Notes: generated by a model not told the origin, from the letters alone. A stretch of DNA of 64,000 nt from Candidatus Magasanikiibacteriota bacterium (GCA_052033375.1 JBPOJQ010000013.1:2255-66254); one strand, 5' to 3'; numbered from the stretch's first letter, positions 6,001-49,738 are shown. Program-made: numbers and translations.

Positions 6001-7644
6001 AGGCATGCTCCACATATTCTCTTCTTTGGTACAGTATCCAAATCCCGTACACTGACCATTTTCGTCAGTTTGTAGACAGGTAGAAAAATCTACACACTCC
6101 TCACGTCTATTTGCAGCAGATTCAGTCAGAAGTTCTGGGCCAGACACACGTGCCTCACAACGCGCTTCAGGTGACTTGAGTATCCAATTCGGATCGATCA
6201 ATTTGCAATATGGATACGCTGGACTCGGTTTACCACTAGGGTCGCACGCATTAAATCCGTCGACGACATCGCCAAGTGTCCATGGATTATCTGGACTTGA
6301 TTTTCGAACCGCAATTTCAAATCCGAGCGGTAAAATACGCGCTTTTCTTAATTTTTCCACATTCGAGATACAGTACGCTGAGCTATGACAATACTGTAAA
6401 TTAGTATTATCGGCAGTGCGCGCTTCTGGAATCAACGGCCAGTTTGGGTGGAGTAAATTCTGTTCCAGCGCTTCGGCAATAGTCATTGGTGTTTCTACTC
6501 GTGCGCGTTCAAGTGCCTGGACCAGTCCTGAATCCATGACACAATTATTCAATCCTGGATTATTTCCACACGTGCTAAATTCCGTCACCACGTCATACGC
6601 GGTCAATGGTCGCTGAGGGACGCTTGCAATTAAATAAGAAAATGCCTGTTCTGCAATCTGACGATTACTATTTACATTCGATGCATAAAAATCACCCACA
6701 GATGAAGGATCGCCTTTGCTCGGGAACAAGCCTTTTTCAACCACATTCTGAAGTAACGAATTTACTAATGTATTTGCAAAAACCGAGAGTGCCATCGGCA
6801 GAATTTGGACTGCACCTGCTCCATAAATTCCTGCGATTTGTTCAGTATTTAATTTGGTTTGAGCTGAAGCAGTCAATTGATTTTTTGTTTCAGTACTGAT
6901 TATTTGCGCAGGTGTTTTGATATCATCTGAAATCAATCCTGACACTGCTTTGAATCCTTCTCCTTCAAGTCGCTGTAGCTGAGCTGATAATTGTTTTTCA
7001 GCCACTAGCGTGTCTACTTTTCCCAAAATACCAAGCGCAACTCCAATATCTCCCTGAGATGTTTTGAGTGAGGCATTGAAATTTTCGAGTAAATTTCGAT
7101 CACCAATGACACTTTCTCTTGCGTTATCCCAATTTTCTTTAAACTGATTATATGTACAGTTGGGCGTAGGTCCCTCGACTGTGCGATTTAATTCATTTTC
7201 AAAAATATTTGAAATACTCACCTGTAGCCCAATCTGCATTCGGATATCTGGGGGTTTACAGATGTTCAAACCAAACGGTTTTCCCAATTCATCAAGCGCA
7301 TCAAATGCACTGTCTGCTGCAACAGTTCCCAAATATTCTCCGAAACCTTCCTGGAACGCTAGTGCCCCCTGTCCTTTTCCACCTGATGCGACATATTTTG
7401 CCGTATCATAGGCAACCTTACGCATAAAATAAGACACACCGTTGACCAGAGCACCCAATCCAGCCGCAAGCAGTGAATCTCCGATATTATCAGTGACATT
7501 TCTGATACCCTGATTGACATCAACCATACCCGCTCGTACAGGGGTCGGACGGAATATATTAAAGCCAAAGATACTCACTGACACCACAATTGCAAGTACT
7601 GTCAATGTGGAGTATTTACGTGTCTTTTGTGATAGGAAAAACAT
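1..7644 (-). CDS. Giant Cys-rich secreted/surface protein, N-terminal 2548 aa in window, C-terminus continues beyond position 1. It has an N-terminal signal/TM anchor, many Cys-rich modules and an internal jelly-roll/CBM-like domain.
   Basis: I translated the frame by hand from ATG (7644..7642) to position 1 and saw no in-frame stop. The N-terminus MFFLSQKTRKYSTLTVLAIVVSVSIF has a hydrophobic anchor. Cys content is high, with many CxC/CxxC spacings. The segment YEVANFGFEPSD...WYEIRFWARG...FLDNIEFVQIGG resembles CBM/laminin-G-like beta-sandwich domains. All listed ORFs in 1..7600 lie in other frames, as expected for shadow ORFs. Confidence 0.85.
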   Translation of the reverse strand, partial: MFFLSQKTRKYSTLTVLAIVVSVSIFGFNIFRPTPVRAGMVDVNQGIRNVTDNIGDSLLAAGLGALVNGVSYFMRKVAYDTAKYVASGGKGQGALAFQEGFGEYLGTVAADSAFDALDELGKPFGLNICKPPDIRMQIGLQVSISNIFENELNRTVEGPTPNCTYNQFKENWDNARESVIGDRNLLENFNASLKTSQGDIGVALGILGKVDTLVAEKQLSAQLQRLEGEGFKAVSGLISDDIKTPAQIISTETKNQLTASAQTKLNTEQIAGIYGAGAVQILPMALSVFANTLVNSLLQNVVEKGLFPSKGDPSSVGDFYASNVNSNRQIAEQAFSYLIASVPQRPLTAYDVVTEFSTCGNNPGLNNCVMDSGLVQALERARVETPMTIAEALEQNLLHPNWPLIPEARTADNTNLQYCHSSAYCISNVEKLRKARILPLGFEIAVRKSSPDNPWTLGDVVDGFNACDPSGKPSPAYPYCKLIDPNWILKSPEARCEARVSGPELLTESAANRREECVDFSTCLQTDENGQCTGFGYCTKEENMWSMPGESCEPQFNTCKTYVSVESGQVGSYLSRTLDTQSCSADSIGCRSYSMEKVGNTWTPSASADPVLAFAGRTQAIHFTLSAQCPASAEGCSLFMDPLVNDSSSDDAKVFLKKAPEYLQCYDTDVTTPQTIEWPKTQAEIVKLEEQKSASCSQFASACTAEEVGCDEYRPKSGGASVAGIIGGNSCPTQCVGYETFKQEATAFESTKFPLHFIAGSGRTCSALQVGCDEFTNIDAANAGGESLEYYTSLKRCERPNGNNSGVFYSWEGSESQGYQLRRNTLLPITQSDAEYIAGLGLNYKTSDSVATVFPVGSPIYVEDVKTVMQSNYDQCNQESYNILLNNTQNDPRAADPDCRALYNANGEIFYRVFRNTVTVSNSCSPLRKTNSELVVDTNITAENGGASLCEAKGGVWGNSQCKRCASGGRYELNAEGIGSCVYQSIKAEATSCPVSANGCRSYIGNTGNNLYEVANFGFEPSDTSAGAINQAKLGWFGNTSIEAESLQVGLHSLRVNAQSTNYTFESGKLQPGAWYEIRFWARGNASFELSIGFSQDGAQIGNAFTFDPASNSNVPVSIGTQWQEYRVGPVQFTGDSTKQTQLYFNTQGSNQVFFLDNIEFVQIGGTASDHVFLIKNSWRTGEGYEVSLACDSTPNNGLPGEHLGCREYTRNDGQTFALTGFDRLCREEAVGCRALVDTQNTVSGVRPEEKQAYGVVCRKSTTVTNQTPCSVTLTESLGVSATYTCMVAKGERECRVQNPVVIPPAATHASITSGSFAGTSGRCISINGSCAVDNSDKLFIDESSVVVKEDSDLIYLAAQNQFLCQEENLACTRVGLETKNVNTDNANAYSYQDVFIKNDPRIYGDTLCTGNEVGCAAFKNDNSLVYFKDPKYSGNGQCVYKDKVTLGSGSSAQTYSGWFRDTGRCSVGNQECRTNSECGSNGQCIDIGIIPCDPTYLNAGNEYGIHSQGSQQYQGAVGVCESAYNGCTELVDRSAITPATPNGKSYYVLMNDRLTEGVAQCQGKVSQKEGCVLFDMTEDLDKVYNTSASYQASRSANPQDSLVTPVITGNLDANILLKVDRDRQCSEWLACGSSITVTDENGNKQVLCQQYVGCRKFGPTGECIERINATLDNSRMTEEKYISRDIGWNATEYSGYSFFNMYNPSNFVYLLFDGRKEAYMGYEMSHSFFTEDEARGCRETTNTSEGVTYVKSDGAVCGFDNGGRCYRERCIYPIEGTFTFTPAAGTSDAAVASNIQNMLKQLQPGICKSYPEQTSPFSIEIAVRDLNESDVKENGEFSRVDFTEKKELYERANVCQPGSASEDCSCEYVKVEYKNGVVDYWATSDAELVAPGICTGGDSDGNPCASTTECGVGGVCSTIKQRGTYVGQKGLCIEYDFSRPLGTSKATARLHEAFACLTWLPIQVSASAVDLNNLDPQAGYYPVQAYDSPLGGGHAYCTESTNRGAGYYDTSLNSLVNLGTFIGSNLTSIDQISTRPLYSGVEYREVFDIDNQTNYRVDRGTSVYRNLMSDTGTGPTEKMKVYRAIQAWSWKNIGPSARVLRLDTKGGDRVDYSEDLGGVGKEVYSFAPLVTEIVGSGGNLLEEDTGVLMHPPRKFSATQNSSGYSHIGEYYMNAGSEEIGKIGTMAFSPEIGLLPGFRDSNTFIHADGVVEAGLREDDLESVHFVPIAFTDGAEGVNPALLTAEVKIEFSVLKNAPANQRVYRNTVPAYSDGGADDQHTYNVTNSETNMTNISYVLNRTGDSESCGVNGLLSYCDYDSSGISPEGFIWELYNRPESEDMRDRNKIARRYVSVVFGSDSVEFSALQNAEVNTIDAFSDPFQVRCEQRGKNNWLAIGMDFNAEGEFLGYIARWCMATENSGGEATGIRIATIAKMQDRCLEYSAVVDNRVSLMEDNNKAWTDRVWAHSVYQPAANGLLSVIKGQTTGIAPYGSLPQSVVNAEILGANTQSLLTPIFGFPDYNFGVPYQCRGGDGFRTGANSIFASSRGC

Positions 7645-22650: not shown

Positions 22651-22732
22651 TGCTCAGGTGGCGAAATTGGTAGACGCACTACCTTGAGGTGGTAGCGCCG
22701 AAAGGCATGGAGGTTCGAGTCCTCTCCTGAGC
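22651..22732 (+). tRNA. tRNA-Leu (anticodon GAG)
   Basis: Acceptor GCTCAGG/CCTGAGC, anticodon stem CTACC/GGTAG with loop TTGAGGT, and a long variable arm. Confidence 0.85.
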
Positions 22733-22789
22733 ACGACCTTGAGAGACCCTGCTAGATGTCCGAGATGGATACTGCAGATGAGCTTAACA

Positions 22790-22818
22790 AAAAACACCCG
22801 AAATTGGGTGTTTTTTGT
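22790..22818 (+). terminator. Rho-independent terminator downstream of tRNA-Leu
   Basis: AAAAACACCC-GAAATT-GGGTGTTTTTTG. It lies inside the 5' end of the track ORF 22756..24336, so the real CDS start is probably downstream. Confidence 0.7.
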
Positions 22819-22869
22819 TTTACTCAAATAAATGATAATATCTATCTACGCACTATCTGTATTCCTCTT

Positions 22870-24336
22870 ATGAATGAAAAAGAAAAAACTATAAATCAAA
22901 AAATTATCATAAGTTCTGGATTAAATAAGTCAGAAAAGTATTTAGCTAAAATCTGCGGTAAAACTTTCTTATCTTTATGGAGTTATCCTAACCTATATCG
23001 CAATAAAGGAAAAGAATTATCGGATTTGCTTGTTGTTTTTGGTAATCATATTCTAATTTTTTCAGATAAATCATGTGCGTACCCAGTAAGTGAAAATCAT
23101 GAACTTAATTGGAGTCGATGGTTTAGAAGAGCTGTTGAAAAATCAGCAAAACAGTTGTGGCGGGCAGAACAATGGATTCGGCAGTACCCAAAGCAGATTT
23201 TTTTAGATCCAGAATGTACGCAACGTTTCCCATTTGATATAGATATACAAAAAACAAAAATCCACTTAATTTTAGTTGCACATGGAGTTTCTGCATCTTG
23301 CAAAAAGTATTTTAATGGTGGAAGTGGTAGTTTAATTATAAAAAACGATATTAAAAGTATTAATGAGCACACAGAGCCATTTGTTATTGGAGATCTCAAT
23401 CCTTCTAAAACTTTTATACACGTACTCGACGACATAACTCTCGATATAGTGATGAACGCACTTGATACCACATCTGATTTGGTTTCCTATTTTTCTAAAA
23501 AAGAAATTCTGCTTCGCTCAGATAAACATATAATGTATACAGGGGAAGAAGACTTACTTCCCTACTATATGACAAAAATTAAAAATGATGAACATGATTT
23601 TGTATTTCCTGAAGAATCAAATGGTATAGCGATTTTCGAAGGTGAATGGAAAAACTTTTGTAATAATCCACAAAGGAAAGCCCAATTAGAAGAAGATAAA
23701 ATAAGTTACTATTGGGATGCACTAATAGAACAATTCAATAAAAATGCTTTAAACGGCACGCAATATAATACTTCAGCAGGGGGTATAAAAGATTCTGAAA
23801 AAATAATGCGTTTCTTTGCAAGTGAAACTCGATTTCGTAGAAGAATTCTTTCAAAAACTGTTCTTGGTTTGATTGAAAAAACACCTAATGATATTTGTGG
23901 CAGAAGATTTAGTGTTCCTCTAACTAAAGATGGAACCTATTATGCTTTTATCACTTTTCCTAAAAAAAATCATCACACGGAACAACAATATCGAGCTTTT
24001 AGAAGCGAGTACTTAAAAATTTGTTGCATGGTTGTTCGCGCAGTATATCCTAATGCTAAAGATATAATTGGATTTGCAACAGAGTCTGGTAAAGAATTAA
24101 AAGGAAGATCAGAAGATGCTCTATATCTTGATGGAAGACATTGGAATGAAGGAATGCAAAAAGAAGCATTAGAGTTACAGAAGAAATTGGGAATTCTTAT
24201 GGAACCTAATTATTACAAAATGAGTGATACTGAATTTCCAGATGTTAATCCAACACAGATTCCTAAAGTTGGAAGAAATGAAAAATGCCCTTGTGGGTCA
24301 AGTAAAAAATATAAAAGATGTCACGGATTTAAATAA
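22870..24336 (+). CDS. Hypothetical protein with a C-terminal SEC-C metal-binding motif, in an AT-rich (about 28% GC) segment
   Basis: The C-terminus NEKCPCGSSKKYKRCHG is a SEC-C motif. I chose the ATG at 22870 (MNEKEK) because the annotated 22756 start would read through the tRNA terminator hairpin. GC content is clearly below neighbouring genes. Confidence 0.65.
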   Translation: MNEKEKTINQKIIISSGLNKSEKYLAKICGKTFLSLWSYPNLYRNKGKELSDLLVVFGNHILIFSDKSCAYPVSENHELNWSRWFRRAVEKSAKQLWRAEQWIRQYPKQIFLDPECTQRFPFDIDIQKTKIHLILVAHGVSASCKKYFNGGSGSLIIKNDIKSINEHTEPFVIGDLNPSKTFIHVLDDITLDIVMNALDTTSDLVSYFSKKEILLRSDKHIMYTGEEDLLPYYMTKIKNDEHDFVFPEESNGIAIFEGEWKNFCNNPQRKAQLEEDKISYYWDALIEQFNKNALNGTQYNTSAGGIKDSEKIMRFFASETRFRRRILSKTVLGLIEKTPNDICGRRFSVPLTKDGTYYAFITFPKKNHHTEQQYRAFRSEYLKICCMVVRAVYPNAKDIIGFATESGKELKGRSEDALYLDGRHWNEGMQKEALELQKKLGILMEPNYYKMSDTEFPDVNPTQIPKVGRNEKCPCGSSKKYKRCHGFK

Positions 24337-24364
24337 ATCTTTATCTTATTGCCAAAAATTTACT

Positions 24365-24787
24365 TTAAATTAAACATAATTTTTTATCTCTTAGTATTAG
24401 CCTATTTTTAACTACTTCTATAAGTTCTCTTTTCTCAAAGATCTTTCCTTCTTTCAAGATATATTTTGCATACTTCTTCATATCTAAATCTTTCTTTTTC
24501 TCTAATTCATCATTTTTTAAACCCAGAACTGCATACCTAAACTGACTATACCGATCTAGTTCTGCTTCTAATTTCTGTTTGATTCCCAGTTTATCTAGAC
24601 TCACCTTACCTATTATTTCTACTAGCTGCTTTATTACTTCGTTCTCATTCATACTCACTCCCCTGCAATTTTGATCCTTTGTTCTCGTGCACACATAGTA
24701 CACGTATCTATGAACATTCCCATTCTGCTGATGCTTGAATTTTTCATCTGCAGTAATACCTGAACCACAATTTCCACATGTCATCAT
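24365..24787 (-). pseudogene. Probable remnant of a large serine recombinase (recombinase zinc-beta-ribbon plus coiled-coil C-terminal region only)
   Basis: CGNCGSGI...YVYYVCTRTKDQNC followed by a K/E-rich helical tail matches the Zn-ribbon and coiled-coil region of large serine recombinases. No resolvase catalytic domain lies upstream. The 5' region is replaced by the 80-bp repeat. Confidence 0.45.
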
Positions 24788-24840
24788 TCTGGTGAACGCG
24801 AATTCTTTGTTCTTTTTCTTTTAGTACACGCTTCGCCTCT

Positions 24841-24919
24841 TTTACATTCAAAACCAAAGACGCTATACTTATTGACAATGCTATAAATTTGTGTAAATAT
24901 AGCGTAAAATCTTAACTTT
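24841..24919 (+). repeat. 80-bp direct repeat copy 1 (promoter plus 5' leader of secreted-protein paralog A)
   Basis: The two copies read tttacattcaaaaccaaagacgctatacttattgacaatgctataaatttgtgtaaatatagcNtaaaatcttaacttt. The only mismatch seen is G (copy 1) versus C (copy 2) at position N. It contains TTGACA and an extended -10-like TGtaaatat. Confidence 0.85.
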
Positions 24920-24920
24920 A

Positions 24921-26525
24921 TTGATTATGAACAGAAACACAAAAATATCTATTACGGCAGCAGTCGCCCTTGTACTCATTATTGGTGTTGGAATTGGATG
25001 CTACATACATAGTAAAAAAACTACTACAGTATCTACAGGACCAACAACCACCAGCACTCCAAATGTTGTGACAGATCCTACTCCAACCGCTAAAACACCA
25101 TATAACATCGGAGAATCCAGAACACTTAGCCCGATCGGCTATTCAGACTTTGATGAGTTTTTGAAAAAAGCTATTCAAAAAAAGACGGTGAAAAATACAC
25201 GCGATAATCTCAATTACACAGCATATCTCTTGAAACAAGAAGATGCAGATTTTCTTGGCTCATCACGTATTATTGTAAAAATTGATCTTGAACGAGATTA
25301 TGCACCACTTCCCTTTTTTGATACACAAATCAATGATGTAGATAGTATTGGTAATTTTCATGTAACCGACAGCGGTCTTGAACTTACGTCAAAAACACAG
25401 ACTTCTGAAGATGAACGCGCATATCTTCTTGAATTTTCACCTATCGTACTTGGAGATAATTATACTCCAGACTCACTGCGTGTAATGCGATTGGTTTCTG
25501 AATCAATCCGAAATAGCTATAAAAAAACTGTTGCTGATTTTTCTGCCGCACTTACGAAAAATGGTATTGCTAACGAATATAAAAATAATACGCTAGTGGG
25601 ATTTGATATTGGCACTATTTACCATATAACTCTTATAGATAATACAAACTATCAAATAAATGTAATGAGTCCTGATTTTAGTATTGGAATTGGCGAAGGA
25701 ATCCCTACATGGTTTACTCCTAATAAGGTAGATTTCACTGCGAGTACTGACATACTACATTCTCAATTTCTTTACCCTACTGACATCTTGTATTCTGATA
25801 AAATAACTATCGAGGGACAGCTGTCTTTTGTAATATTTACTTACTGCGGATATCCAGCATCAAATTATTGCGTACAGATTCGTACAAAAGACAGCCGAAA
25901 CATGGGATATGTAGTGAATATAGACGTTGATGATTCCTATAAAGAAAATCCTGAAATTGCGGTACAGAAAATTATAACCAGCCCATTGGTTAAAAATATA
26001 TTCTCATCAATCAATTCTCAAGAAAGTACTGCCCAGCCTACACGTGAACACGCTAAGAATGTTATTTCTGCACTTAGAAATGCTGATTTCTCACAACTCT
26101 CTACCTACACTCACCCCGAAAAAGGCATCCGTTTCTCACCATACATATATGTGCAGAAGGATTCACATCTGGTGTTTAAAGTAGATAGTATAAAAAATCT
26201 ACTGAATGATACAAAAGTATATACCTGGGGAACTTACGATGGTTCTGGATTCCCTATTGAACTAACCCCTAAAGAATATTATGATCAATTCGTATATTCT
26301 CGTGACTTTGCGAATGTAGCAAAGATTACCTATAATGATATATCCAATTATAATACCCAAAAAATACTTGAAACGTATCCACAGAGTACTATTGTGGAAT
26401 ATTATTATCCTGGCACCGATCCAAAATTCGAGGGCATGGATTGGCAAAGTTTGCGATTGGTATTTGAGGAATTTAATGGTACCTGGTATCTGGTAGGCAT
26501 TGTGCACGACGAATGGATGATCTAG
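24921..26525 (+). CDS. Membrane-anchored secreted protein, paralog A (N-terminal TM, Thr/Pro-rich linker, multi-domain ectodomain)
   Basis: 534 aa. TM segment ISITAAVALVLIIGVGIGCYI, then linker TTTVSTGPTTTSTPNVVTDPTPTAKTP. The central region NVMSPDFSIGIGEGIPTWFTPNKVDFTA is homologous to the 29310 gene. Confidence 0.8.
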   Translation: MIMNRNTKISITAAVALVLIIGVGIGCYIHSKKTTTVSTGPTTTSTPNVVTDPTPTAKTPYNIGESRTLSPIGYSDFDEFLKKAIQKKTVKNTRDNLNYTAYLLKQEDADFLGSSRIIVKIDLERDYAPLPFFDTQINDVDSIGNFHVTDSGLELTSKTQTSEDERAYLLEFSPIVLGDNYTPDSLRVMRLVSESIRNSYKKTVADFSAALTKNGIANEYKNNTLVGFDIGTIYHITLIDNTNYQINVMSPDFSIGIGEGIPTWFTPNKVDFTASTDILHSQFLYPTDILYSDKITIEGQLSFVIFTYCGYPASNYCVQIRTKDSRNMGYVVNIDVDDSYKENPEIAVQKIITSPLVKNIFSSINSQESTAQPTREHAKNVISALRNADFSQLSTYTHPEKGIRFSPYIYVQKDSHLVFKVDSIKNLLNDTKVYTWGTYDGSGFPIELTPKEYYDQFVYSRDFANVAKITYNDISNYNTQKILETYPQSTIVEYYYPGTDPKFEGMDWQSLRLVFEEFNGTWYLVGIVHDEWMI

Positions 26526-26535
26526 TATTTCCTAT

Positions 26536-27144
26536 ATGTCTACCACCCAACTCCATTTCCGTTACTCTCCCATCTACGACCGCTCTCTTGCAGCATTATC
26601 TTCTACAGAACTTTCTGACGATCAGATTTCAGAAGGTTTTTCTTTTGCCAATGATTTTGCTGCGTATTGGCAAGATAAAAACGACAAAATATTTAATTAC
26701 TATAGTGAACTAGGATTAGTGCTTGCAGATTTTTGGTTAGCATACCCGGTTCATGCACAAAAAAATATTGTTCCATTTAATGATCCTCTTACATTCTTCA
26801 TCAAAGATAATTTTGATGAATGTGCAGCAACAATTACTCATGAAATTTGTCACACGTTCTTTAGTTATTTTGCAAACAATGAACGTGCAGTAGAACTCTG
26901 GAAACCAATTGCAGAAAAATTCTCAGATGAACCAAATGACGTACAGGAACATATTTTAATTAATATGCTTGCATCTGGTGGATACTTCAGAATCTTTGAT
27001 AGTAATAAAGCTATTGAATTAATAAAAATGGAAACCGAATATTCTTCACTCGCTCGAAGCTGGAAGCTTATCTATGATGGTATTGGTGGAGATTTTGAGA
27101 AGCTTAAAGATCCTTTGGAAGCTCTCAAAATTCTTGCTACGTAA
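26536..27144 (+). CDS. Hypothetical protein with an HExxH motif (putative zinc metallopeptidase-like)
   Basis: 202 aa. ITHEICHTFF contains HExxH and is followed by an acidic helical region. Confidence 0.6.
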   Translation: MSTTQLHFRYSPIYDRSLAALSSTELSDDQISEGFSFANDFAAYWQDKNDKIFNYYSELGLVLADFWLAYPVHAQKNIVPFNDPLTFFIKDNFDECAATITHEICHTFFSYFANNERAVELWKPIAEKFSDEPNDVQEHILINMLASGGYFRIFDSNKAIELIKMETEYSSLARSWKLIYDGIGGDFEKLKDPLEALKILAT

Positions 27145-27148
27145 GACG

Positions 27149-27829
27149 TTAAATAGTTTTTCTCTTAAATTCAAAGACATAAAACATAAAAGACTTATTG
27201 TGGGCTGGTCTTTTATATACTTCTACAATTTCAAATCCATTATTTTCTGCCAAATGGAAAGGTAGGTAAATACTCAGATCAGCAAAATTTGCCCAACCGA
27301 AATAGATTCGACCACCAGGATTTAAGTATCTAGCTGCCTGGTTAAAAAACTTTTGTTTCATTAGATTATTTGGGTCCCAAAACATTTTATCGATAGCGTC
27401 CTTTGCACCATGATTGTTGTATGGTGGATTGCAGATAATAGCATCAAAGGTACCGGTAACATTTTCAAAAACATCAGACTGTAAAAACTGAATATTACTT
27501 ATTCCATTTTTCTCTGCATTCAATTTGCTGTTTTCTACCGCGCGTTCATTGATATCCACCCCTACCCCAGATTTTGCATACTGAGCAAGGTATAAACATA
27601 TTGTTCCAGTACCACATCCTATTTCTAAGAATGTTTGTCCTGGTTCCAGACATACCGATTGAGCCATAAGTTCGGTATCAACAGACGTTCTGTATACTCC
27701 ACTAAGCACTTGAATTGGAAGACCACAACACTCAATATCTAGTGGTTGCCCTGTTGTGTGTCTTTCTTGAAGTCTCTCTGTTTGAGACGGGACAGCTGGA
27801 ATATTGCTTTGCTCTAGAGTGAATTTCAT
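27149..27829 (-). CDS. Class I SAM-dependent methyltransferase with an NPPY motif (HemK/PrmC or TrmN6/methyltransferase-small-domain type)
   Basis: Motif I LEIGCGTGTICLYLAQ, acidic DIN, and NPPY (AIICNPPYNN) are present. Confidence 0.7.
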   Translation of the reverse strand: MKFTLEQSNIPAVPSQTERLQERHTTGQPLDIECCGLPIQVLSGVYRTSVDTELMAQSVCLEPGQTFLEIGCGTGTICLYLAQYAKSGVGVDINERAVENSKLNAEKNGISNIQFLQSDVFENVTGTFDAIICNPPYNNHGAKDAIDKMFWDPNNLMKQKFFNQAARYLNPGGRIYFGWANFADLSIYLPFHLAENNGFEIVEVYKRPAHNKSFMFYVFEFKRKTI

Positions 27830-27844
27830 AATTCAAAATAGTAT

Positions 27845-28078
27845 CTAAGACTTTCTCTTGAAAAAAAGGTTCTCAAGCTGCTCAAGTTCCTTTATTGGTT
27901 TTTCTTCAAAGAAACAGACGAATGATTCTTTGAGTGTTTCGTTTTCTAATACTATCTGGAATTTACCTTCATGACTAAAAATGCAATCAATTGGGAAAAA
28001 GTGATGATGCCACGGGATTCCGTTGATAGAATATGATTGGACGAGACGAATTATTTCTTCAAATTGAACAATCTTCAT
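27845..28078 (-). CDS. Small hypothetical protein
   Basis: 77 aa ORF, AT-rich, and co-directional with the neighbouring small gene. Confidence 0.4.
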   Translation of the reverse strand: MKIVQFEEIIRLVQSYSINGIPWHHHFFPIDCIFSHEGKFQIVLENETLKESFVCFFEEKPIKELEQLENLFFKRKS

Positions 28079-28087
28079 ATATTATAT

Positions 28088-28474
28088 CTATTTATTTTCC
28101 ATCACTTGTTTTAAATTTTCTAATATAGCTTGTGTAAATGGATTTTGTAACTCCCCAGTCTTTACCCATTCGTAATATTCTAATTCAGTCTGTGTATCTC
28201 CTATCACTGTATACGAATATCTAACATGATAATTCTCCGCCATATCTGAAAGAGTAAATACATCATATAGTTCATATTCTATTACTTTATAGGTATTCCA
28301 TTCAGTATCAGTGCCAGAATTTTTATACTGCGTACCAATATGCGGAGGATATTCCTCAGCAATTTCTTTTTGAATAGATGGAATCCATAAATGGGTATTC
28401 TCGGGATTGGTGGTAAATTCAAATACAACTGGGGCAGGCTTATCTATAATAATAGTTAGTTTATTTTCTTTCAT
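28088..28474 (-). CDS. Hypothetical protein (possibly SRPBCC/START-like fold)
   Basis: 128 aa. Alternating beta-strand-like hydrophobic patterns are visible. No definitive motif was found. Confidence 0.45.
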   Translation of the reverse strand: MKENKLTIIIDKPAPVVFEFTTNPENTHLWIPSIQKEIAEEYPPHIGTQYKNSGTDTEWNTYKVIEYELYDVFTLSDMAENYHVRYSYTVIGDTQTELEYYEWVKTGELQNPFTQAILENLKQVMENK

Positions 28475-28554
28475 AGATTGAAATCAGTATATCCCATAAA
28501 AAGCACGACCGTCCACAGATGTTCTGGGACGGTCGGCGAATGCGAGCGTAGTGC

Positions 28555-29034
28555 TCAGTAGCCTTTGGAAGGCGGGATGACCTCGTCTCCGACTCGGATG
28601 AGTCCGCACTGGAACACTTCGGCAACGAGACCGCCGCGATCGTAGAAGGCTTCCTTGAACCCCGGCTTGCCCGAGAGGTTGCTCGGACGATCACAAGGAT
28701 CGCAGTACTTCACGCCGAGGAACTTGGCGTCGTCAATCGAGAAGTACTTTCCGATGAGCCACATGAGCTCGACACCTTCGACGACGATGTTCCGTCGGCT
28801 ATCGACGTAGTCAAAGCCCGTCCCTGGGAAGAAGACCCCGTTGATGAACGTGACCTGTCGACGACCTTGGTTACCCTTGTTAAAGCTACCTTCACCCGTG
28901 CAGTAACGATCTCCTTCGAGACCCATACCTTCGAGCGCTCGGACTTCGTTGACCAGCTGCATGGGACCTCCAGCAGCCGGTGAGATGCAGATCGCTATGA
29001 CCTTGCCATTCGCCATACCCTGACTCCTTTTCAT
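28555..29034 (-). CDS. MOSC-domain protein (MoCo sulfurase C-terminal-like), in a high-GC patch
   Basis: 159 aa with conserved Cys and GDRY-type motifs (GLEGDRYCTGEG). Local GC is about 58% against about 39% in the flanks. Confidence 0.55.
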   Translation of the reverse strand: MKRSQGMANGKVIAICISPAAGGPMQLVNEVRALEGMGLEGDRYCTGEGSFNKGNQGRRQVTFINGVFFPGTGFDYVDSRRNIVVEGVELMWLIGKYFSIDDAKFLGVKYCDPCDRPSNLSGKPGFKEAFYDRGGLVAEVFQCGLIRVGDEVIPPSKGY

Positions 29035-29202
29035 GGGTTTGTGCCTATACTACCAGATATTTGAATAAGTTCAATAAGTGTCTTATTTACCACGGAAACA
29101 TGCTCCCCTGACCGAGAGGGTTTCCCCCATCCTTTCAAAAAGACCTTGAAAGAGCCCATGGTTGGCTGTAGATGTGATTATTTGGGCCGTGGTGGTGCAC
29201 AG

Positions 29203-29227
29203 AAAAACACCCGATGAGGGTGTTTTT
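29203..29227 (+). terminator. Hairpin terminator AAAAACACCC-GATGA-GGGTGTTTTT (bidirectional-capable)
   Basis: A GC stem flanked by A-run and T-run. It sits between MOSC (minus) and repeat copy 2. Confidence 0.65.
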
Positions 29228-29303
29228 ACATTCAAAACCAAAGACGCTATACTTATTGACAATGCTATAAATTTGTGTAAATATAGCCTAAAATCTTAAC
29301 TTT
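29225..29303 (+). repeat. 80-bp direct repeat copy 2 (promoter plus leader of paralog B)
   Basis: Near-identical to 24841..24919 (one G/C difference seen). It carries the same TTGACA and extended -10-like element. Confidence 0.85.
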
Positions 29304-29309
29304 TTACTT

Positions 29310-29999
29310 ATGAATAGAAATACTCAGATTGGTATACTCGTTGCAGTTGTTGTTCTTGTAGTGGGTGGATGGTTTGCATACGATATGTATACAACCAAAA
29401 ATACTCCTGTTGTAACTGATCCTAACGGTCAAACTCCTGTAGTTACTCCGACCAATACTGAACCTGGCGATGTTTTAGATTTCTCTAAAAAAATTGCAGA
29501 TATTAGTGCACAGCTGACTGCAAAAGGTGTTACTAATGAATATAAAGAAGTCACTGAATCATTGGATACTGGTAGACGTTTTATGTTTACCTTTGGAGAC
29601 CAGGCACCAGATTACCAGTTATATGTGATGAGTCCTGATTTCGCTCTTGGTGTTGGAGAAGGTGGCCCAACGTCGTTTACTCCTCGTGATATGGATTTTG
29701 CTGCACCTTGGTACGGTATGGTAGATCAATTACAAGAACTTGGATACTACCGCGAACAAAATATTCAAGATTCAAAAAAAGCTGAAATTAATGGAGTGTA
29801 TTTTTATTGGATCTTTGGAGATTTCGGATTTGTGGAACCAGACTTACATGTTCAAGCACTTGCAAATGACAAAGATACTATCGGATACCTACTTCATGTA
29901 AACACCTTTGATCTCGACTACACGGGCAAAGGCATGAAAGCGATTGAAGAAGTAGAGAATAATCCATTTGCACAAAAGATTTTTTCAGTCATCAAATAA
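29310..29999 (+). CDS. Membrane-anchored secreted protein, paralog B (short form)
   Basis: 229 aa. TM segment IGILVAVVVLVVGGWFAYDMY, then T/P linker TPVVTDPNGQTPVVTPTNTEPG. YVMSPDFALGVGEGGPTSFTPRDMDFAA is homologous to the central region of paralog A. Confidence 0.8.
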   Translation: MNRNTQIGILVAVVVLVVGGWFAYDMYTTKNTPVVTDPNGQTPVVTPTNTEPGDVLDFSKKIADISAQLTAKGVTNEYKEVTESLDTGRRFMFTFGDQAPDYQLYVMSPDFALGVGEGGPTSFTPRDMDFAAPWYGMVDQLQELGYYREQNIQDSKKAEINGVYFYWIFGDFGFVEPDLHVQALANDKDTIGYLLHVNTFDLDYTGKGMKAIEEVENNPFAQKIFSVIK

Positions 30000-30027: not shown

Positions 30028-30603
30028 TTATTCTAACATTTTTCTTCGTACCAACAACAGCACCACAAAAGCTCCATTCATGATAATAAGAGAACTCGGG
30101 TATAGCCACGTGGCAAGAGAAAAGGAGTTAAGTGCGATAATTCCAAAAATCCATTTAACACTACTGAACGTATACATAATCGCTGTTTCTTCGTGTGGAT
30201 AGTGATAACCCTTTCGGAAGGTTGGCAAGAAGCCGATTGCGTCAGTAATCGTAATTAATACTACTGACCATGTAGGATCACTGGTAAATTTCCACAGTAA
30301 CATCGATACACATGCAGAGGCTAAACAAAGCCAATCAAACAAACTAAATGTTCGTTTTCCTTTAAATAACGCTAGAAAGAAAATAGTGAAACAAACTAAC
30401 GACGAAAATCCAGTTACCCATGCTCCAGCTCCTGCGTTTTCGGTAACTTGCGCAGCAAATGCGATACCGGTTAGTATTCCCCATACGAGCCAAGAAAATG
30501 CATGCGGTTTTGTCTGATTTTTAATAATATCCCGAAAATATGGAACATAGCCAATGAATGCAAGTATCGTAGCAATATATCCAAATGCAATTTTATAGTC
30601 CAT
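30028..30603 (-). CDS. Polytopic membrane protein with two PQ-loop/MtN3-like repeats (SWEET-like), paralog of 42056..42649
   Basis: 191 aa with 6-7 TM helices. The first repeat is GYVPYFRDIIKNQTKPHAFSWLVWG and the second is GFLPTFRKGYHYPHEETAIMY. Clear similarity to the 42056 gene. Confidence 0.55.
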   Translation of the reverse strand: MDYKIAFGYIATILAFIGYVPYFRDIIKNQTKPHAFSWLVWGILTGIAFAAQVTENAGAGAWVTGFSSLVCFTIFFLALFKGKRTFSLFDWLCLASACVSMLLWKFTSDPTWSVVLITITDAIGFLPTFRKGYHYPHEETAIMYTFSSVKWIFGIIALNSFSLATWLYPSSLIIMNGAFVVLLLVRRKMLE

Positions 30604-30739
30604 ATTGCCTTATTCTACACGAGATCAAAAAATTATGAAAACAAAAACAACCCAGTATCTGAGTTGTTTTTGATGGAACCGCGTTTGCACTCGACTCCAC
30701 CAGGCACACCGCGGTTGAATGTACCCGTTGTCTCAGATG

Positions 30740-31399
30740 TCAGGTTCGGCGACGAAAGATGAATAGACTGTCGACCACACCTCTCTTGGTCGGCAGGCTG
30801 GGCAGATGTGCGTTGCCTCTCGTTCTCACCGCGATCAGCGCCCGATAGGCTTCGAACACCGACTTGTACTGAGTGATGCCAGCTCTCGACAGGAGTAACT
30901 TCAAGAAACTGTACGACTTCGTCTGCTTCAGTTGCTCATCATTCTCCACGGTCTCCCATGCGAGCTGGAGATCAGACGTGTCGACGGTTGCACCACCACC
31001 CATGCCGTCCGAATCGACTCTCGCGACTTCCTCAAAATCTGAATCGTTGTGGAGCCTGGTAGCCACCTCCCACCAGTTGTTGCACACCACGAACCCCGGA
31101 GTGTTGAGGCAGTCGAGTGGACGAGAAGGCAGTGGTGAATTCCTGGCGAAAATCACGTCAGCGAGTTCGGGAAGGGTGAAGTTTTCGACATCTGACTCGT
31201 ACGCTTCATACCCTCGCTCCACCATATTCGACACCACTTTCGGATCAATGTCGAGATAGATGACACGTGCATCAGGGAACATATGCGTCGGCGCATCGTC
31301 ATCGCCACATCCGGGATAGTAGACGACCCGGACCGTGACGCTGATCGACGCGAAGTACGCCTGAATTGCCTTGACCTGGTTACTGTAATTGTCTTGCAT
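30740..31399 (-). CDS. Hypothetical cytoplasmic protein in a high-GC patch with a strong SD
   Basis: A GGAGG sits 7 nt upstream of the ATG at 31399 (MQDNYSNQ...). GC is well above the flanks. The track ORF start at 31447 lies upstream of the SD. Confidence 0.6.
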   Translation of the reverse strand: MQDNYSNQVKAIQAYFASISVTVRVVYYPGCGDDDAPTHMFPDARVIYLDIDPKVVSNMVERGYEAYESDVENFTLPELADVIFARNSPLPSRPLDCLNTPGFVVCNNWWEVATRLHNDSDFEEVARVDSDGMGGGATVDTSDLQLAWETVENDEQLKQTKSYSFLKLLLSRAGITQYKSVFEAYRALIAVRTRGNAHLPSLPTKRGVVDSLFIFRRRT

Positions 31400-31496
31400 G
31401 TTTTTTCCTCCGAAAGGGAAGGTACAGAAAAAAGAGATGCTCGTCAATGGCGTACGCCCACATGATATAGTTTTGATTTAAGTCAACGTTATGGAT

Positions 31497-31525
31497 TTAA
31501 AAACACCCGCTGGGGGTGTTTTTTT
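31497..31525 (+). terminator. Hairpin AAAAACACCC-GCTGGG-GGTGTTTTTTT (bidirectional)
   Basis: It sits between the convergent ends of the 30740 gene and the PEP-utilising enzyme gene. Confidence 0.6.
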
Positions 31526-36676: not shown

Positions 36677-37302
36677 GAAGAATACCCATTGTTCTTCATT
36701 AGTAAGTATCTCATACTCTTATGCTCCTACAAAAAAATCCGTACCATTTCTGGTACAGATTTTTTTGTTTCATACTACTCCTATAAGCCGAATTTTGTAT
36801 CCCGACATAGTCGGGACGACGATCATTTCTCTAGTCTTACTGTTGCCAGTAAAATCATGAACGAGCTAACTTTTCGAATCCCAAATTGCTTTGGAAAACG
36901 CTGCTCTTTCTTCAGGTAGGGTTTGCCATCAATCTGTCTCGCGACAGAGGAAGTATCGTAGTATTGATACAGATGCATATGCGGACCGATCAATACACCA
37001 ATACACTTTTCACCTTTCATCGCATAGCGATTAGTATAGTCTCTGTGGCACTTTCCCGTCAGAACATTTTGCAATGCCTGAGGTGGGTGTTACCCACTAC
37101 CTTTTTTCTTATCTACTTGGTAGACAAGAGAAGTTCGGACTTTCCTCCCTTCTTCGCTCTTCACTGTGTTCAAGCTTCATACAGACCAGTACTCTCGTAT
37201 TCACAAACATATACGGTGTGTCTGGTGTGGCTCTAAACGTAATGAAGAACGAAGTCAGGCGATCATCCAGAGTAATACGAAACAGTGAGAGAATACCATA
37301 AA

Positions 37303-46522: not shown

Positions 46523-49500
46523 TTACTCCGTTAATGATCCCAATTGATTGCGCAATGCCTCTAACTTTTGTCTGCTCTCCTCAAGTTTTTGTTGCTCTTT
46601 TTCCACCACTGCTCGCGGTGCATTTTTTACAAACTCTGTATTCGATAGTTTCTTTTCCATCTGAATCACATAAGGCTCTACGTTTGCAATCTCTTTTTCA
46701 ATTCTCACTTTTTCCTTTTTCATATCAACTGCACTACTCAAATCTATTTCTACTTCCACACCAGACTCAGTAAACGAAATTCCCTTTTCAAGTTTTTCGG
46801 CTGCAATTTTTTCGAGTCCTGCTAATCGAATTAACACTGGCGTATATTCTTTGAGTAATGTACTCATGCTCTCTACTCTTATGTTTGCAGTTATTTTCTT
46901 TGCTGGTTCCACTTTGTACTCAGTACGAATTGAACGAATTTTGGTAATAATATTTCGGAGCGTAGTATCAATGAATACAATATTATTATTCTCCTTCTTA
47001 CCTTTACCTAGCTTTGGATATTCTTCTACCATAAGTGGCGTGTCCCCGTATATCTCTTGCCATACTTGTTCTGTCACAAAGGGCATAAACGGATGCCAGA
47101 GTTTGAGAATCGTATTCAAAATATAATTCAAAATATTACTCTTCTCACCTTCTACTTTTGCAATTTCTAAATACCAATCAGCAAGTTCTCCCCAGGTAAA
47201 GTCTCGCAGTGTTTCACCTGCAATGGAAAATTGATATGAATCAAATGACTTACCCACCTGAGTAACTACGGTATGCAATTTCCATAAAATCCATTCATCT
47301 GCAGCAGTCTGTGCTTTTGGTTCTGTAATATCTTTCGCAGGTGTATCAATATTCAACAACATGAACCGGCTAATATTCCAAAGCTTATTGGTAAAATTAC
47401 GGAAACCTGCAATTTTTTCTTCTGACAATCGCATATCATTCCCTGGCGTCCCGCCAATGAGAAGCGATAGACGTGTCGCATCAGTCCCATATTTCTTGAT
47501 CATGTCCAACGGATCAATAATATTTCCGAGAGACTTACTCATCTTTCTTCCTTCTTCATCACGCACCAGTCCATGAAGATACACGGTTTTAAATGGAACT
47601 TCACCAAGGGCGTATGTACTCATAAGAATCATACGGGCAACCCAGAAAAAGAGAATATCGTATCCTGTTTCCAAAACTGAAGTGGGATGGAACACTTCTA
47701 TATCAGTCGATAATGAATTATCCGCAGCGTACACTCGAGTATCTGCCGTGGCCCTCTGTTGTATGGTGTCCCAGCTCTTTCCTGTAAGCGACGTACCGAA
47801 TTGTTTTAGAACTTCGAGCGTATCTCCATGAGATACAATTGCGATACGTTTTCCTCGATTTTTTTGCAATATTTCTAACAAAAAAGAATGTGTCCGTTCA
47901 CGCAAATCCACGTATGATTCCATCCCATAGGGTGTTTCAATCATCCATTCATGTTGGTCCCTCATTTTGTCAAACTCCTCTTCACTTCTACTATTGAACT
48001 CGCCCACACCCACTTCTCGAAGTCGAATATCTTCAATAACAGGAACTCCTAATTTTTTTGAGAGGATTTCGGCTGTCTCATGTGTACGCACAATTGGAGA
48101 TGCGTAGATAATATCCGGCTTTTTTTTCGATAATTTTTTGCTCAATTCCTCCACTTGTTTTCTCCCAACCTTGGTGAGGTGATATGAATTCGTATCTGAC
48201 ACATCGCTCACTACCCCTGCCACATTATTCTCTGCTTCTCCGTGACGAATAAACTGGATTTCAGTCGTAGGCCACCCAAGTGTAGAAAATGTCCACGAAC
48301 CTGAGGAAAACCAGGTATCGAGTGTATCTGAATCTTGAGTCCAACCTTTTCCTTCAGGTTTTGTTCCAACCACAGTCTCTTCACCTTTGTACCACACAGG
48401 AATTTGATGCCCATACCAAATCTGCCGACTGATATTCCAATCACGCAGATTATCAATCCAATGAAAGTATGTTTTATCGAATCGTTCAGGGATAATTTTA
48501 ATATCCCCAGTCTTGACTACGGTTTGCATCAATTGTTTCAAAGTAACCAATTGTCCTTTATTAATTGTCTTTAATCTTGAATCCTTAATCTTAAATTTTT
48601 TATTCACATCAATAAACCACTGGGTTTTTGGCAATGGCTCAACAATATCTCCAAACCGATCACTGGTCCCAACATTCTGAATTGTGTCTTCAGTTTTCTC
48701 AAGAAGTTTTTGCTTTTCAAGCCATGCAACTAACTTCTTTCGAGCTTCTTCAATCGTCAGCCCGGCAAAAGATTCACCTGCATTAGTAGTCATTTTTCCA
48801 TCCTCACCAATCACCTGAATCAGTCCAATATCTTTATTTTTCTGATAGATTTCAAAATCAGTCTGACTGTGTGCCGGAGTGACTCCGAGCGCTCCAGTAC
48901 CAAATGTGTCATCGACTCCAGCGTCTCCAATTACTTGCAATTTCAATGTATGTCCGGTTTGACCGAAGTTTTTTATAACAAAAGTTTTTCCAATATATTT
49001 TTTCCATTTTCCTTTTGGGTTGACTGCAATCGCTGTATCTCCGAGCTTGGTTTCTGGACGAGTCGTTGCGATAGTTATCGGACATTCTGGCCCGTATGTA
49101 AAATAATATAATTTTCCTGGACGCTCGACATACACGAGTTCATCATCACTGCACGTTGATTGACCTTTAACAGACCAATTAATCACGCGGTACCCTCGAT
49201 AAATAAGCCCGTCATCATACATCATTTTGAATATGGTGTTTACGGCCACATTTCGTGGATTATCTAGAGTAAATGCTTCACGCGACCAATCGAGCGATGC
49301 GCCCATTTTTTTCGCTTGATTTACAATCGTATCATGCGACTCACGTGCAAATTTTTCTACGTGTTTCAAAAATTTTTCACGCCCCAGCTCTGCTTTTGGT
49401 TTTTTCATTCCACCATCAATCAACATTTTTTCTACTTTTGACTCAGTTGCGACTGCTGCATGATCGGTTCCTGGAATCCAGAGGGTTTTGTCACCCTTCA

Positions 49501-49738
49501 TCCGATGATAGCGCGCCATCACATCCTGCACTGCGAGCATGACCGCATGACCCATATGGAGGGTTCCAGTCACATTTGGAGGAGGCAATACCATACTAAA
49601 AGACTCTCTCTTCGTATCATCCTTGATCCACTCTGGAGTGCTCTCAGGCGCAAAAAAACCGCCTTTTTCCCAGCGTTTGTAGATCTTATCCTCGTATATA
49701 TGAGGTTCGTAAGCTTTGGGTAATTCTCGAGGGGGCAT
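46523..49738 (-). CDS. valS: Valine--tRNA ligase carrying an inserted histidine-phosphatase (phosphoglycerate-mutase-like) domain
   Basis: HIGH (HMGHAV) and KMSKS are present. A C-terminal coiled-coil is present. A 192-aa insertion between ...FSTLGWP and FHPTSVLETGYDILFFW contains RHGEAENN and SHGDT. Confidence 0.9.
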   Translation of the reverse strand: MPPRELPKAYEPHIYEDKIYKRWEKGGFFAPESTPEWIKDDTKRESFSMVLPPPNVTGTLHMGHAVMLAVQDVMARYHRMKGDKTLWIPGTDHAAVATESKVEKMLIDGGMKKPKAELGREKFLKHVEKFARESHDTIVNQAKKMGASLDWSREAFTLDNPRNVAVNTIFKMMYDDGLIYRGYRVINWSVKGQSTCSDDELVYVERPGKLYYFTYGPECPITIATTRPETKLGDTAIAVNPKGKWKKYIGKTFVIKNFGQTGHTLKLQVIGDAGVDDTFGTGALGVTPAHSQTDFEIYQKNKDIGLIQVIGEDGKMTTNAGESFAGLTIEEARKKLVAWLEKQKLLEKTEDTIQNVGTSDRFGDIVEPLPKTQWFIDVNKKFKIKDSRLKTINKGQLVTLKQLMQTVVKTGDIKIIPERFDKTYFHWIDNLRDWNISRQIWYGHQIPVWYKGEETVVGTKPEGKGWTQDSDTLDTWFSSGSWTFSTLGWPTTEIQFIRHGEAENNVAGVVSDVSDTNSYHLTKVGRKQVEELSKKLSKKKPDIIYASPIVRTHETAEILSKKLGVPVIEDIRLREVGVGEFNSRSEEEFDKMRDQHEWMIETPYGMESYVDLRERTHSFLLEILQKNRGKRIAIVSHGDTLEVLKQFGTSLTGKSWDTIQQRATADTRVYAADNSLSTDIEVFHPTSVLETGYDILFFWVARMILMSTYALGEVPFKTVYLHGLVRDEEGRKMSKSLGNIIDPLDMIKKYGTDATRLSLLIGGTPGNDMRLSEEKIAGFRNFTNKLWNISRFMLLNIDTPAKDITEPKAQTAADEWILWKLHTVVTQVGKSFDSYQFSIAGETLRDFTWGELADWYLEIAKVEGEKSNILNYILNTILKLWHPFMPFVTEQVWQEIYGDTPLMVEEYPKLGKGKKENNNIVFIDTTLRNIITKIRSIRTEYKVEPAKKITANIRVESMSTLLKEYTPVLIRLAGLEKIAAEKLEKGISFTESGVEVEIDLSSAVDMKKEKVRIEKEIANVEPYVIQMEKKLSNTEFVKNAPRAVVEKEQQKLEESRQKLEALRNQLGSLTE

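Follow-up and report, generated by a model that had tools for sequence, protein, structure and literature searches.

The stretch of DNA considered here, referred to as the window, comprises 64,000 nt of an 82.7-kb metagenome-assembled contig from Candidatus Magasanikiibacteriota bacterium (GCA_052033375.1, JBPOJQ010000013.1:2255-66254). It contains a direct repeat of 80 nt whose two copies, 4384 nt apart, each stand directly upstream of a gene encoding a predicted membrane-anchored protein, and the two proteins belong to the same family. The repeat copies and the genes are placed as follows:

24840-24919, + strand: putative promoter/leader element, copy 1 (repeat search; blastn against copy 2, E=3e-39; nhmmer profile, E=5e-22)
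24927-26525, + strand: gene 1, 532 aa (open reading frame (ORF) list and alignment; no Pfam match)
29224-29303, + strand: putative promoter/leader element, copy 2 (79/80 identical to copy 1; repeat search, blastn and nhmmer)
29310-29999, + strand: gene 2, 229 aa, a short form with a transmembrane (TM) anchor, a Thr/Pro linker and domain B only (ORF list and protein alignment)

The initial annotation of this DNA, made from the sequence alone, had described two near-identical 80-bp copies with a single G/C difference, and a repeat search of the window finds them as described: the copies are 99% identical, they differ only at repeat position 65, and their first 64 nt are the same. Comparing the region with itself recovers the direct repeat and, as the sole other collinear DNA similarity between the two loci, the core motif of a protein domain shared by the two genes:

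25645-25741, + strand: domain B core (VMSPDF..GEG.PT.FTP), 71% nt identical to its gene 2 counterpart at 29608-29704 (invariant alignment columns)

No third copy of the repeat is found in the 64 kb by blastn, and an nhmmer profile built from eight copies returns only these two (E about 1e-22), with the next best match at E>3. The identical stretch opens with TTTTACA, and its end falls somewhere from repeat position 64 to position 81. If one gap is allowed the similarity extends to ~101 nt at 94%, through the start codon and the first five codons (MNRNT), three of which differ synonymously between gene 1 and gene 2, so that the identical tract stops before the ATG. Counted from codon 1, the coding sequences of the two genes are about 50-60% identical at the nucleotide level. 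On its sequence the repeat is a real duplicated promoter-like element and not a chance similarity.

The paralogy proposed for the two anchored proteins is confirmed by their alignment, which gives 35% identity over 172 aa (E=1e-24), and an N-terminal hydrophobic helix, the Thr/Pro-rich linker that follows it and the core motif are common to both. The sizes originally given were 534 and 229 aa; the second stands, whereas the first should probably be revised to 532 aa, as the ATG at 24927 is a more likely start for gene 1 than the TTG at 24921. The gene 1 product is built from a TM anchor with a possible lipobox (GIGC), the Thr/Pro linker, a domain A (residues ~55-190), a domain B (~190-362) and an extra C-terminal domain (363-532). 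Pfam has no match for either family protein, and at E<=5 nothing convincing appears for the gene 1 C-terminal domain or for an HExxH ORF downstream of gene 1; the C-terminal domain does match P0009 and P0010, two unrelated high-GC proteins, at 44-49%. Orthologues of gene 2 in three related loci from other genomes (L001, L009 and L006) are 81-88% identical at the amino acid level.

An AlphaFold model of a long-form family member, P0005 (pLDDT 74.6, pTM 0.70), predicts a helix at the N-terminus and a disordered linker, followed by two domains, A being beta-rich and B alpha/beta. Foldseek comparison of domain B with the PDB gives weak matches only (E>=6e-3; TM-score 0.2 by query and 0.43 by target), the most probable being DcrB (6e8a, probability 0.97-0.99), PsbP (probability 0.5-0.8) and the type VI secretion system (T6SS) immunity protein TplEi, and a structure search of a viral library with the P0005 model returns no match. 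The modelled domain B resembles the PsbP/DcrB/Mog1-like alpha-beta sandwich, although the matches are weak and come with no sequence similarity and no Pfam match, and anchoring at the outer face of the membrane is common to DcrB and to this family. We take this likeness as a fold-level hint that concerns the protein only and not the repeat. The family members are best explained, from their sequences, as lineage-specific, membrane-anchored, extracytoplasmic proteins.

The family is very rare, unannotated and new. A word-indexed search of 5.8 billion proteins found seven sequences at E<=0.001 for the 229-aa protein, including the query's own entry, and three for the 532-aa protein, including the query itself, while a HMMER profile search of 1.84 billion cluster representatives gave 19 at E<=1e-3. 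When the search for the element was widened, no copies beyond the two were found in the window and nine further copies came to light upstream of relatives in nine other assemblies (L001, L003, L006, L009, L010, L011, L012, L015 and L017), so that 11 independent copies can be compared. The element stands upstream of every recovered family gene of the MNRNT type or with domain A only, in the same orientation throughout, and its end lies 7-10 nt from the start codon in all copies. It is absent at two more distant members of the family, L014 and L019; a more distant A-only member without the element lies on a 0.91-Mb contig. A pattern search with the leader core found only the L003 contig among genome contigs and nothing in metagenome contigs, and a promoter-core pattern found nothing in metagenome or viral contigs, though it matches 17/17 element-bearing loci.

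Two promoter-like sites can be recognised in each copy of the element, one behind the other:

24841-24869 (copy 1) and 29225-29253 (copy 2), + strand: promoter-like site P1, TTTACA-17-TATACT (sigma-70-like scan)
24872-24900 (copy 1) and 29256-29284 (copy 2), + strand: promoter-like site P2, TTGACA-17-AAATAT with TGTGt before the -10 (read from the sequence)

The element had first been read as a promoter with a TTGACA -35 and an extended -10-like element. Part of this reading holds, in that TTGACA is present in both copies (24872-24877 and 29256-29261) and is accompanied by the TGTG motif, which gives P2 a perfect -35, optimal spacing and an extended -10 or TRTG-like motif; the -10 paired with it, AAATAT, is weak, and P2 is not listed by the promoter scan, its -10 matching at only 3/6 positions. 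The best match of the scan lies instead upstream, at P1, which agrees with the consensus at 10/12 positions and is the top sigma-70-like match both in the two copies and in the 10 kb scanned. Alignment of the 11 copies reveals invariant or nearly invariant blocks at TTTTACA, TATACT, TTGACA and GTGTAAATATAGC, with TTGACA kept in 11/11 copies, GTGTAAATATAGC in 10/11 and both P1 hexamers together in 10/11. The variation is concentrated in two blocks that correspond to the spacers of the tandem sites, namely the 3' part of the P1 spacer and the 5' 9 nt of the P2 spacer. Because the hexamers are conserved, the spacers vary and the position and orientation relative to the gene are fixed, we infer that the element is a promoter together with the start of a leader, carrying two tandem sigma-70-type sites from either of which transcription could start. 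A palindrome in the element, GCTATA...TATAGC, was considered as a conserved operator and rejected, its left arm lying in a variable block and not being kept in the other copies.

The leader that would follow P2 is ~20 nt long, A/U-rich and without a Shine-Dalgarno sequence, and together with the early coding sequence it shows no consensus RNA structure (RNAalifold, -0.11 kcal/mol). Rfam at the gathering score finds only RNase P RNA and three tRNAs in the whole window and leaves the element unmatched; at E<=10 the copy-2 region gives chance-level matches only, none of them for the element or the block upstream of it, and at E<=1 five related loci give nothing for the element or the conserved upstream block. 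A cis-regulatory RNA or riboswitch is ruled out by the lack of any Rfam match and of conserved structure. The RNase P RNA (36768-37192, - strand) scores 115.7 bits against a gathering score of 100. A Shine-Dalgarno sequence is likewise absent in about 46/48 of the window genes checked, and many window genes have a TATAAT-like -10 box 10-25 nt before the ATG, which suggests that mRNAs in the window have very short leaders or are leaderless; for these two reasons a short unstructured leader looks normal for this organism.

What calls for explanation is that the promoter-like element is 99% identical between the window genes when their coding sequences are about 45-70% identical at the nucleotide level, a disparity to which the initial annotation had correctly drawn attention. 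Across the first 64 nt the window copies agree at 64/64 positions, against a between-genome mean of 55/64. Among the 11 copies 25 of these 64 positions vary, and the window copies carry the same base at 25/25; at six of the 25 the window base is found in at most 2/9 of the other copies. When the window is compared with its short-form orthologues in L001, L009 and L006, identity is 81-89% in the promoter and about 85% at the nucleotide level in the coding sequence, the orthologous promoters differing at 8-11/64 positions, about like the coding sequence. Since orthologous promoters are no better conserved than the coding sequence behind them, selection alone fails to explain the 99%.

The surroundings of the two copies bear on the same question, and three features mark them:

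22652-22734, + strand: tRNA-Leu(GAG), marking the copy-1 ancestral locus (ARAGORN and Rfam)
24365-24787, - strand: remnant of a large serine recombinase, truncated at its 5' end and reduced to the zinc ribbon and coiled coil, 52 nt from copy 1 (PF13408)
28555-29034, - strand: MOSC-domain gene, 57% GC, divergent from gene 2 and marking the copy-2 locus (PF03473)

The L010 contig starts with the 3' 59 nt of tRNA-Leu(GAG), identical to the window at 58/59 positions, and has the element 43 nt downstream, while recombinase remnants 61-65% identical in amino acid sequence to that of the window, which is 140 aa long and has no catalytic domain, adjoin the element in L011 and L015. On the other side, the MOSC protein is 91% identical to an L003 MOSC protein encoded beside a family gene, and the window from 28461 to 29437 matches L003 at 83% over 995 nt, a segment that covers the MOSC gene, a non-coding block, a terminator, the element and 43 codons; the DAGK, bactofilin and HisKA genes found 8-9 kb downstream of copy 2 are syntenic in L003 and L012. 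By these comparisons the long-form gene 1 and the short-form gene 2 occupy anciently separate loci, the one next to tRNA-Leu and the recombinase remnant and the other next to the MOSC gene.

The explanation that we favour, with a probability of about 70%, joins three statements: that the repeat is the promoter and leader of this family, that it forms part of a 216-nt 5' module, and that its two copies were made alike by gene conversion between two ancient loci. The two family loci, which now lie 4.4 kb apart in the window, would have been separate since long ago, and one promoter would recently have been overwritten by the other through non-reciprocal homologous recombination over a tract of at least 64 nt and at most about 85 nt, leaving both genes with the same promoter and presumably co-expressed. 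The shared window promoter is closest to that of L012 (60/64), and because L012 sits at a copy-2-type locus this weakly suggests copy 2 as the donor, although the direction is uncertain. Recombination between paralogous loci had been among the origins proposed initially and is supported by the agreement at 25/25 variable positions and by the separate loci; a recent duplication of the whole gene does not fit, the coding sequences being saturated.

Other explanations have to be set against gene conversion. A common regulator or sigma factor might hold the whole 80 bp constant by purifying selection alone, with no recombination, and there is real constraint on parts of the element, as the 11 copies hardly vary in their hexamers, TGTG motif and leader; yet the positions at which the window copies agree include all 25 that vary between genomes, the orthologous promoters diverge about as the coding sequence does, and the palindrome, part of which falls in a variable block, is not kept in the other copies, which leaves this explanation improbable. 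The genes are paralogues in the same orientation only 4.4 kb apart, as would be expected if gene and promoter had been duplicated together recently and the coding part had then diverged very fast. We nevertheless regard a recent whole-gene duplication as practically excluded, because the coding sequences are saturated (35% aa and about 50% nt identity), the two genes differ in domain architecture and their loci are both ancient and distinct; orthologues of each form, moreover, are found in other genomes with flanking synteny particular to that form, and synonymous differences are present from the first codons on. The repeat could also have arisen in assembly, by a chimeric join, a path swap at the repeat or consensus smoothing of two similar promoters, given that the contig comes from a metagenome assembly, that a 64-nt exact stretch is a possible graph branch point, and that the MOSC gene (L003) and the recombinase remnant (L011) both occur beside long forms, so that synteny cannot assign a gene to a copy. 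We think an artefact unlikely all the same: four different flanks occur on one contig with one internal difference retained, junctions of each type are seen again in independent assemblies, the leader variant of copy 1, ATTGATT, agrees with the long-form L010 while that of copy 2, TTAnnT, agrees with the short forms, and a repeat of 64-80 nt is shorter than normal reads.

Two further explanations invoke mobility or programmed switching. The left boundary of the element is sharp at TTTTACA in six different contexts, and recombinase or integrase fragments adjoin it in the window, L011, L015 and L009, with a tRNA adjacent in L010; such features would suit an att-like site or a mobile promoter cassette moved by site-specific recombinases, the direct repeats then marking a 4.4-kb insertion. 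This, too, is unlikely, considering that the element boundaries show no terminal inverted repeats, target-site duplication or attC-like site, that the element keeps a fixed distance and orientation to a family gene and occurs nowhere else in the 64 kb, that the recombinase remnants have no catalytic domain and viral contigs give no matches, and that the two junctions bounding the 4.4-kb interval are both ancient, each turning up separately in other genomes. A miniature inverted-repeat transposable element (MITE), an insertion sequence (IS) and an integron cassette were each ruled out by the absence of terminal inverted repeats (TIR) or target-site duplication (TSD) and by the finding of family-associated copies only. 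Phase or antigenic variation, in the form of an invertible promoter or of expression-site switching, might be read from a conserved 5' untranslated region (UTR) and signal sequence joined to divergent mature parts, as in the mycoplasma vsp/vpma genes (PMC2268961), and from the recombinase remnant next to copy 1; but the repeats are direct, no inverted repeats flank the promoter, the locus has no intact recombinase and no homopolymer or dinucleotide tract, and silent cassettes are absent, every family gene having a promoter copy of its own. Inverted pairs of 20-43 nt do occur nearby, but they are imperfect, with 71-83% complementarity, and neither copy is bracketed by any of them, the sole inverted-repeat overlap being that of a terminator hairpin whose arms reach the first bases of copy 2. 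Programmed variation of this kind is accordingly very improbable, and the suggestion that the locus bears the hallmark of variable surface-protein families can be kept in a loose sense, for a conserved 5' end with fast-diverging ectodomains, and not for switch machinery, of which inverted repeats, an intact recombinase, repeat tracts and silent cassettes are all missing.

Several considerations weigh against gene conversion between the two loci as we have described it. Both promoter-like sites are putative, and the -10 of P2 is weak. This genome is the only one with both loci on one contig, and it therefore provides the one case of homogenisation within a genome. In a metagenome-assembled contig the assembly paths could have been swapped across the identical 64 nt, in which event the duplication would remain, and the pattern would look no different if one promoter had been replaced by a copy received horizontally from a relative. 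L001 (1796-1859) may represent a second lineage in which promoters were homogenised: its promoter, at a short-form locus, agrees at 62-63/64 positions with those at the recombinase-remnant loci of L011 (517-580), L015 (6937-7000) and L017 (1273-1336), these contigs being from different samples. L001 and L017 also share ~24 nt directly upstream of the promoter, with one indel and one mismatch.

The 80-nt repeat is the putative promoter part of a larger module of 216 nt that is common to several genomes:

29224-29439, + strand: 5' module of putative promoter, leader and first ~43 codons, the latter encoding the signal anchor and the start of the linker (blastn end points)

Its downstream edge is sharp: by blastn the homology of copy 2 to the long-form genes of L003, L010 and L011 ends at 29437-29439, and in 20-codon windows compared between genomes the first 40 codons are 77-87% identical at the nucleotide level, falling then to about 50%. 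Identity between the ectodomains encoded behind the module is only 33-42%. A single syntenic locus carries a domain-B-only short form in the window, an A+B long form in L003 and, in L012, a long form preceded by an A-only gene. L011 has an A-only ORF with the promoter on one side and a second leader copy on the other; L006 also has an A-only ORF, behind which just the conserved 5' end of the gene is repeated. Most family genes have in common a 3' hairpin terminator, AGGAAGCCTCT...AGAGGCTTCTTATTT, which is missing after window gene 2. The constant-variable-constant layout would suit cassette exchange by homologous recombination.

The interval between the two loci holds the two further genes that had been reported there, an HExxH protein and an NPPY methyltransferase:

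26536-27144, + strand: HExxH ORF, 202 aa, 10 nt after gene 1 (sub-threshold SprT-like match, E=0.087)
27149-27829, - strand: NPPY class-I methyltransferase (MTS domain), between the loci and outside the system (PF05175, E=7e-22)

The HExxH ORF is probably co-transcribed with gene 1, and it has counterparts elsewhere, in that a metallopeptidase or a candidate for one lies directly downstream of the family gene or genes in 5/11 loci. The downstream gene encodes a Peptidase_M23 protein (699 aa) in L001 (2689-4788) and L009 (1300-3399), and a VldE/Extensin-like_C protein with an HRDHIHVE motif in L015 (7701-8996) and L017 (1986-4010); in the window the candidate is the HExxH ORF, and L003 has an M23-like fragment (4929-5234) in the same position. 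One hypothesis is that the family proteins are functionally paired with these metallopeptidases, as regulator, inhibitor, immunity factor or partner. A broader proposal, which we put forward tentatively and think rather doubtful, is that the module and the 3' terminator serve as homology arms for the swapping of long, short and A-only cassettes, the proteins perhaps being coupled to the adjacent secreted metallopeptidases of peptidoglycan type (M23, M15-like and HExxH); if true, this would amount to recombination-driven diversification of envelope proteins in a small-genome, uncultured lineage.

The mechanism favoured here is known in Helicobacter, Mycoplasma and others, and it is the protein family that is new. 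In Helicobacter pylori, intragenomic gene conversion at the 5' ends of babA, babB and babC makes chimeras and moves expression signals between loci (PMC4552749). The likeness to the present case lies in paralogous envelope-protein genes at separate loci, with homologous 5' regions (and in bab 3' regions also) around a divergent middle. There are differences as well: here conversion would have affected the promoter proper, the tract ending ahead of the ATG; a CT-repeat tract for phase variation is missing; the proteins have a signal anchor, whereas the bab products are beta-barrel outer membrane proteins (OMPs); no sequence relationship exists; and one genome has both loci. In the mycoplasma vsp/vpma genes the 5' UTR and signal-peptide region are highly conserved, even between species, while the remainder has no significant homology (PMC2268961), and the 216-nt module shows the same pattern of conserved 5' end and divergent remainder. 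The vsp/vpma genes are, however, clustered, and a single promoter is moved by Xer-type site-specific inversion; in the present case a separate promoter copy precedes each gene, the repeats run in the same direction and an intact recombinase is lacking.

Recombination at the 5' end is thus a familiar route for the evolution of surface-protein families, and the locus would provide a sequence-level example, from an uncultured bacterium, of promoter homogenisation by gene conversion between envelope-protein paralogues. The family combines what appears to be a portable 5' module for expression and export with fast-changing ectodomains, often beside secreted cell-wall metallopeptidases. A role of the module in exchanging cassettes, if there is one, would indicate a system for diversifying the cell surface in a lineage about whose surface biology next to nothing is known.

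Three further features lie around the two copies of the element:

22830-24839, no strand assigned: ~2-kb low-GC (30-33%) insert, from the tRNA-Leu terminator to copy 1 (GC profile and Pfam; boundaries inferred)
29060-29200, + strand: conserved non-coding block upstream of copy 2 (homologous in L003, L006, L012 and L001)
29203-29227, no strand assigned: hairpin terminator AAAAACACCC-N5-GGGTGTTTTT, symmetrical, with a T-run that overlaps the first bases of copy 2 (sequence)

The low-GC insert carries a 526-aa ORF with a C-terminal SEC-C motif as well as the recombinase remnant, is absent in L010 and has TTTTAC at both of its ends; it looks like a decayed integrated element. The N-terminal truncation point of the remnant is the same in the window and in L011 (9-437; 61% aa identity), and the L015 remnant (5692-6435) is longer, at 247 aa; either the truncation is old and the reading frame has stayed open ever since, or the ORF serves some function itself. 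Within the segment 22735-22829, the ~50 nt that directly follow tRNA-Leu(GAG), CCTGCTAGATGTCCGAGATGGATACTGCAGATGAGC, match at 25/27 positions a piece of DNA that in L003 and L006 separates the non-coding block from the terminator. The true start of the ORF at 22756-24336 is probably further downstream, because its annotated start overlaps this post-tRNA segment and a hairpin of the same type at 22786-22819.

At the copy-2 locus, the arrangement in which a terminator overlaps the start of the element is the same in L003, L006 and L012. Similar hairpins occur in the window at 22786-22819 and 31499-31523, and the terminator was rejected as evidence of paralogy, being of a generic hairpin type that recurs elsewhere in the window. 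The non-coding block has its relatives at 3430-3607 in L003, 190-408 in L006, ~5880-6008 in L012 and 4988-5112 in L001; in four genomes it immediately precedes the element, and L001 has it on its own, enclosed by convergent genes. It contains GTCTCATTT, which is repeated, together with CCCCGACCGAGAGGG and GGTGGTGCAC, and has the hairpin terminator at its end. Rfam has no match for it and the four sequences show no covariation beyond the terminator; for the window copy, folding gives z=-2.6. The block may be a small RNA not described so far or a decayed remnant.

Base composition also changes near copy 2, where two GC-rich islands (28400-29200 and 30600-31450; 52-57% against a window average of 41%) hold the MOSC gene and an ORF at 30740-31447 (- strand) without a Pfam match; the L003 contig differs in overall GC, at about 45-55%. 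Elsewhere in the window, the valyl-tRNA synthetase ORF (46523-49738, - strand; 1071 aa) has an inserted histidine-phosphatase domain (His_Phos_1, aa 496-669, E=1e-35).

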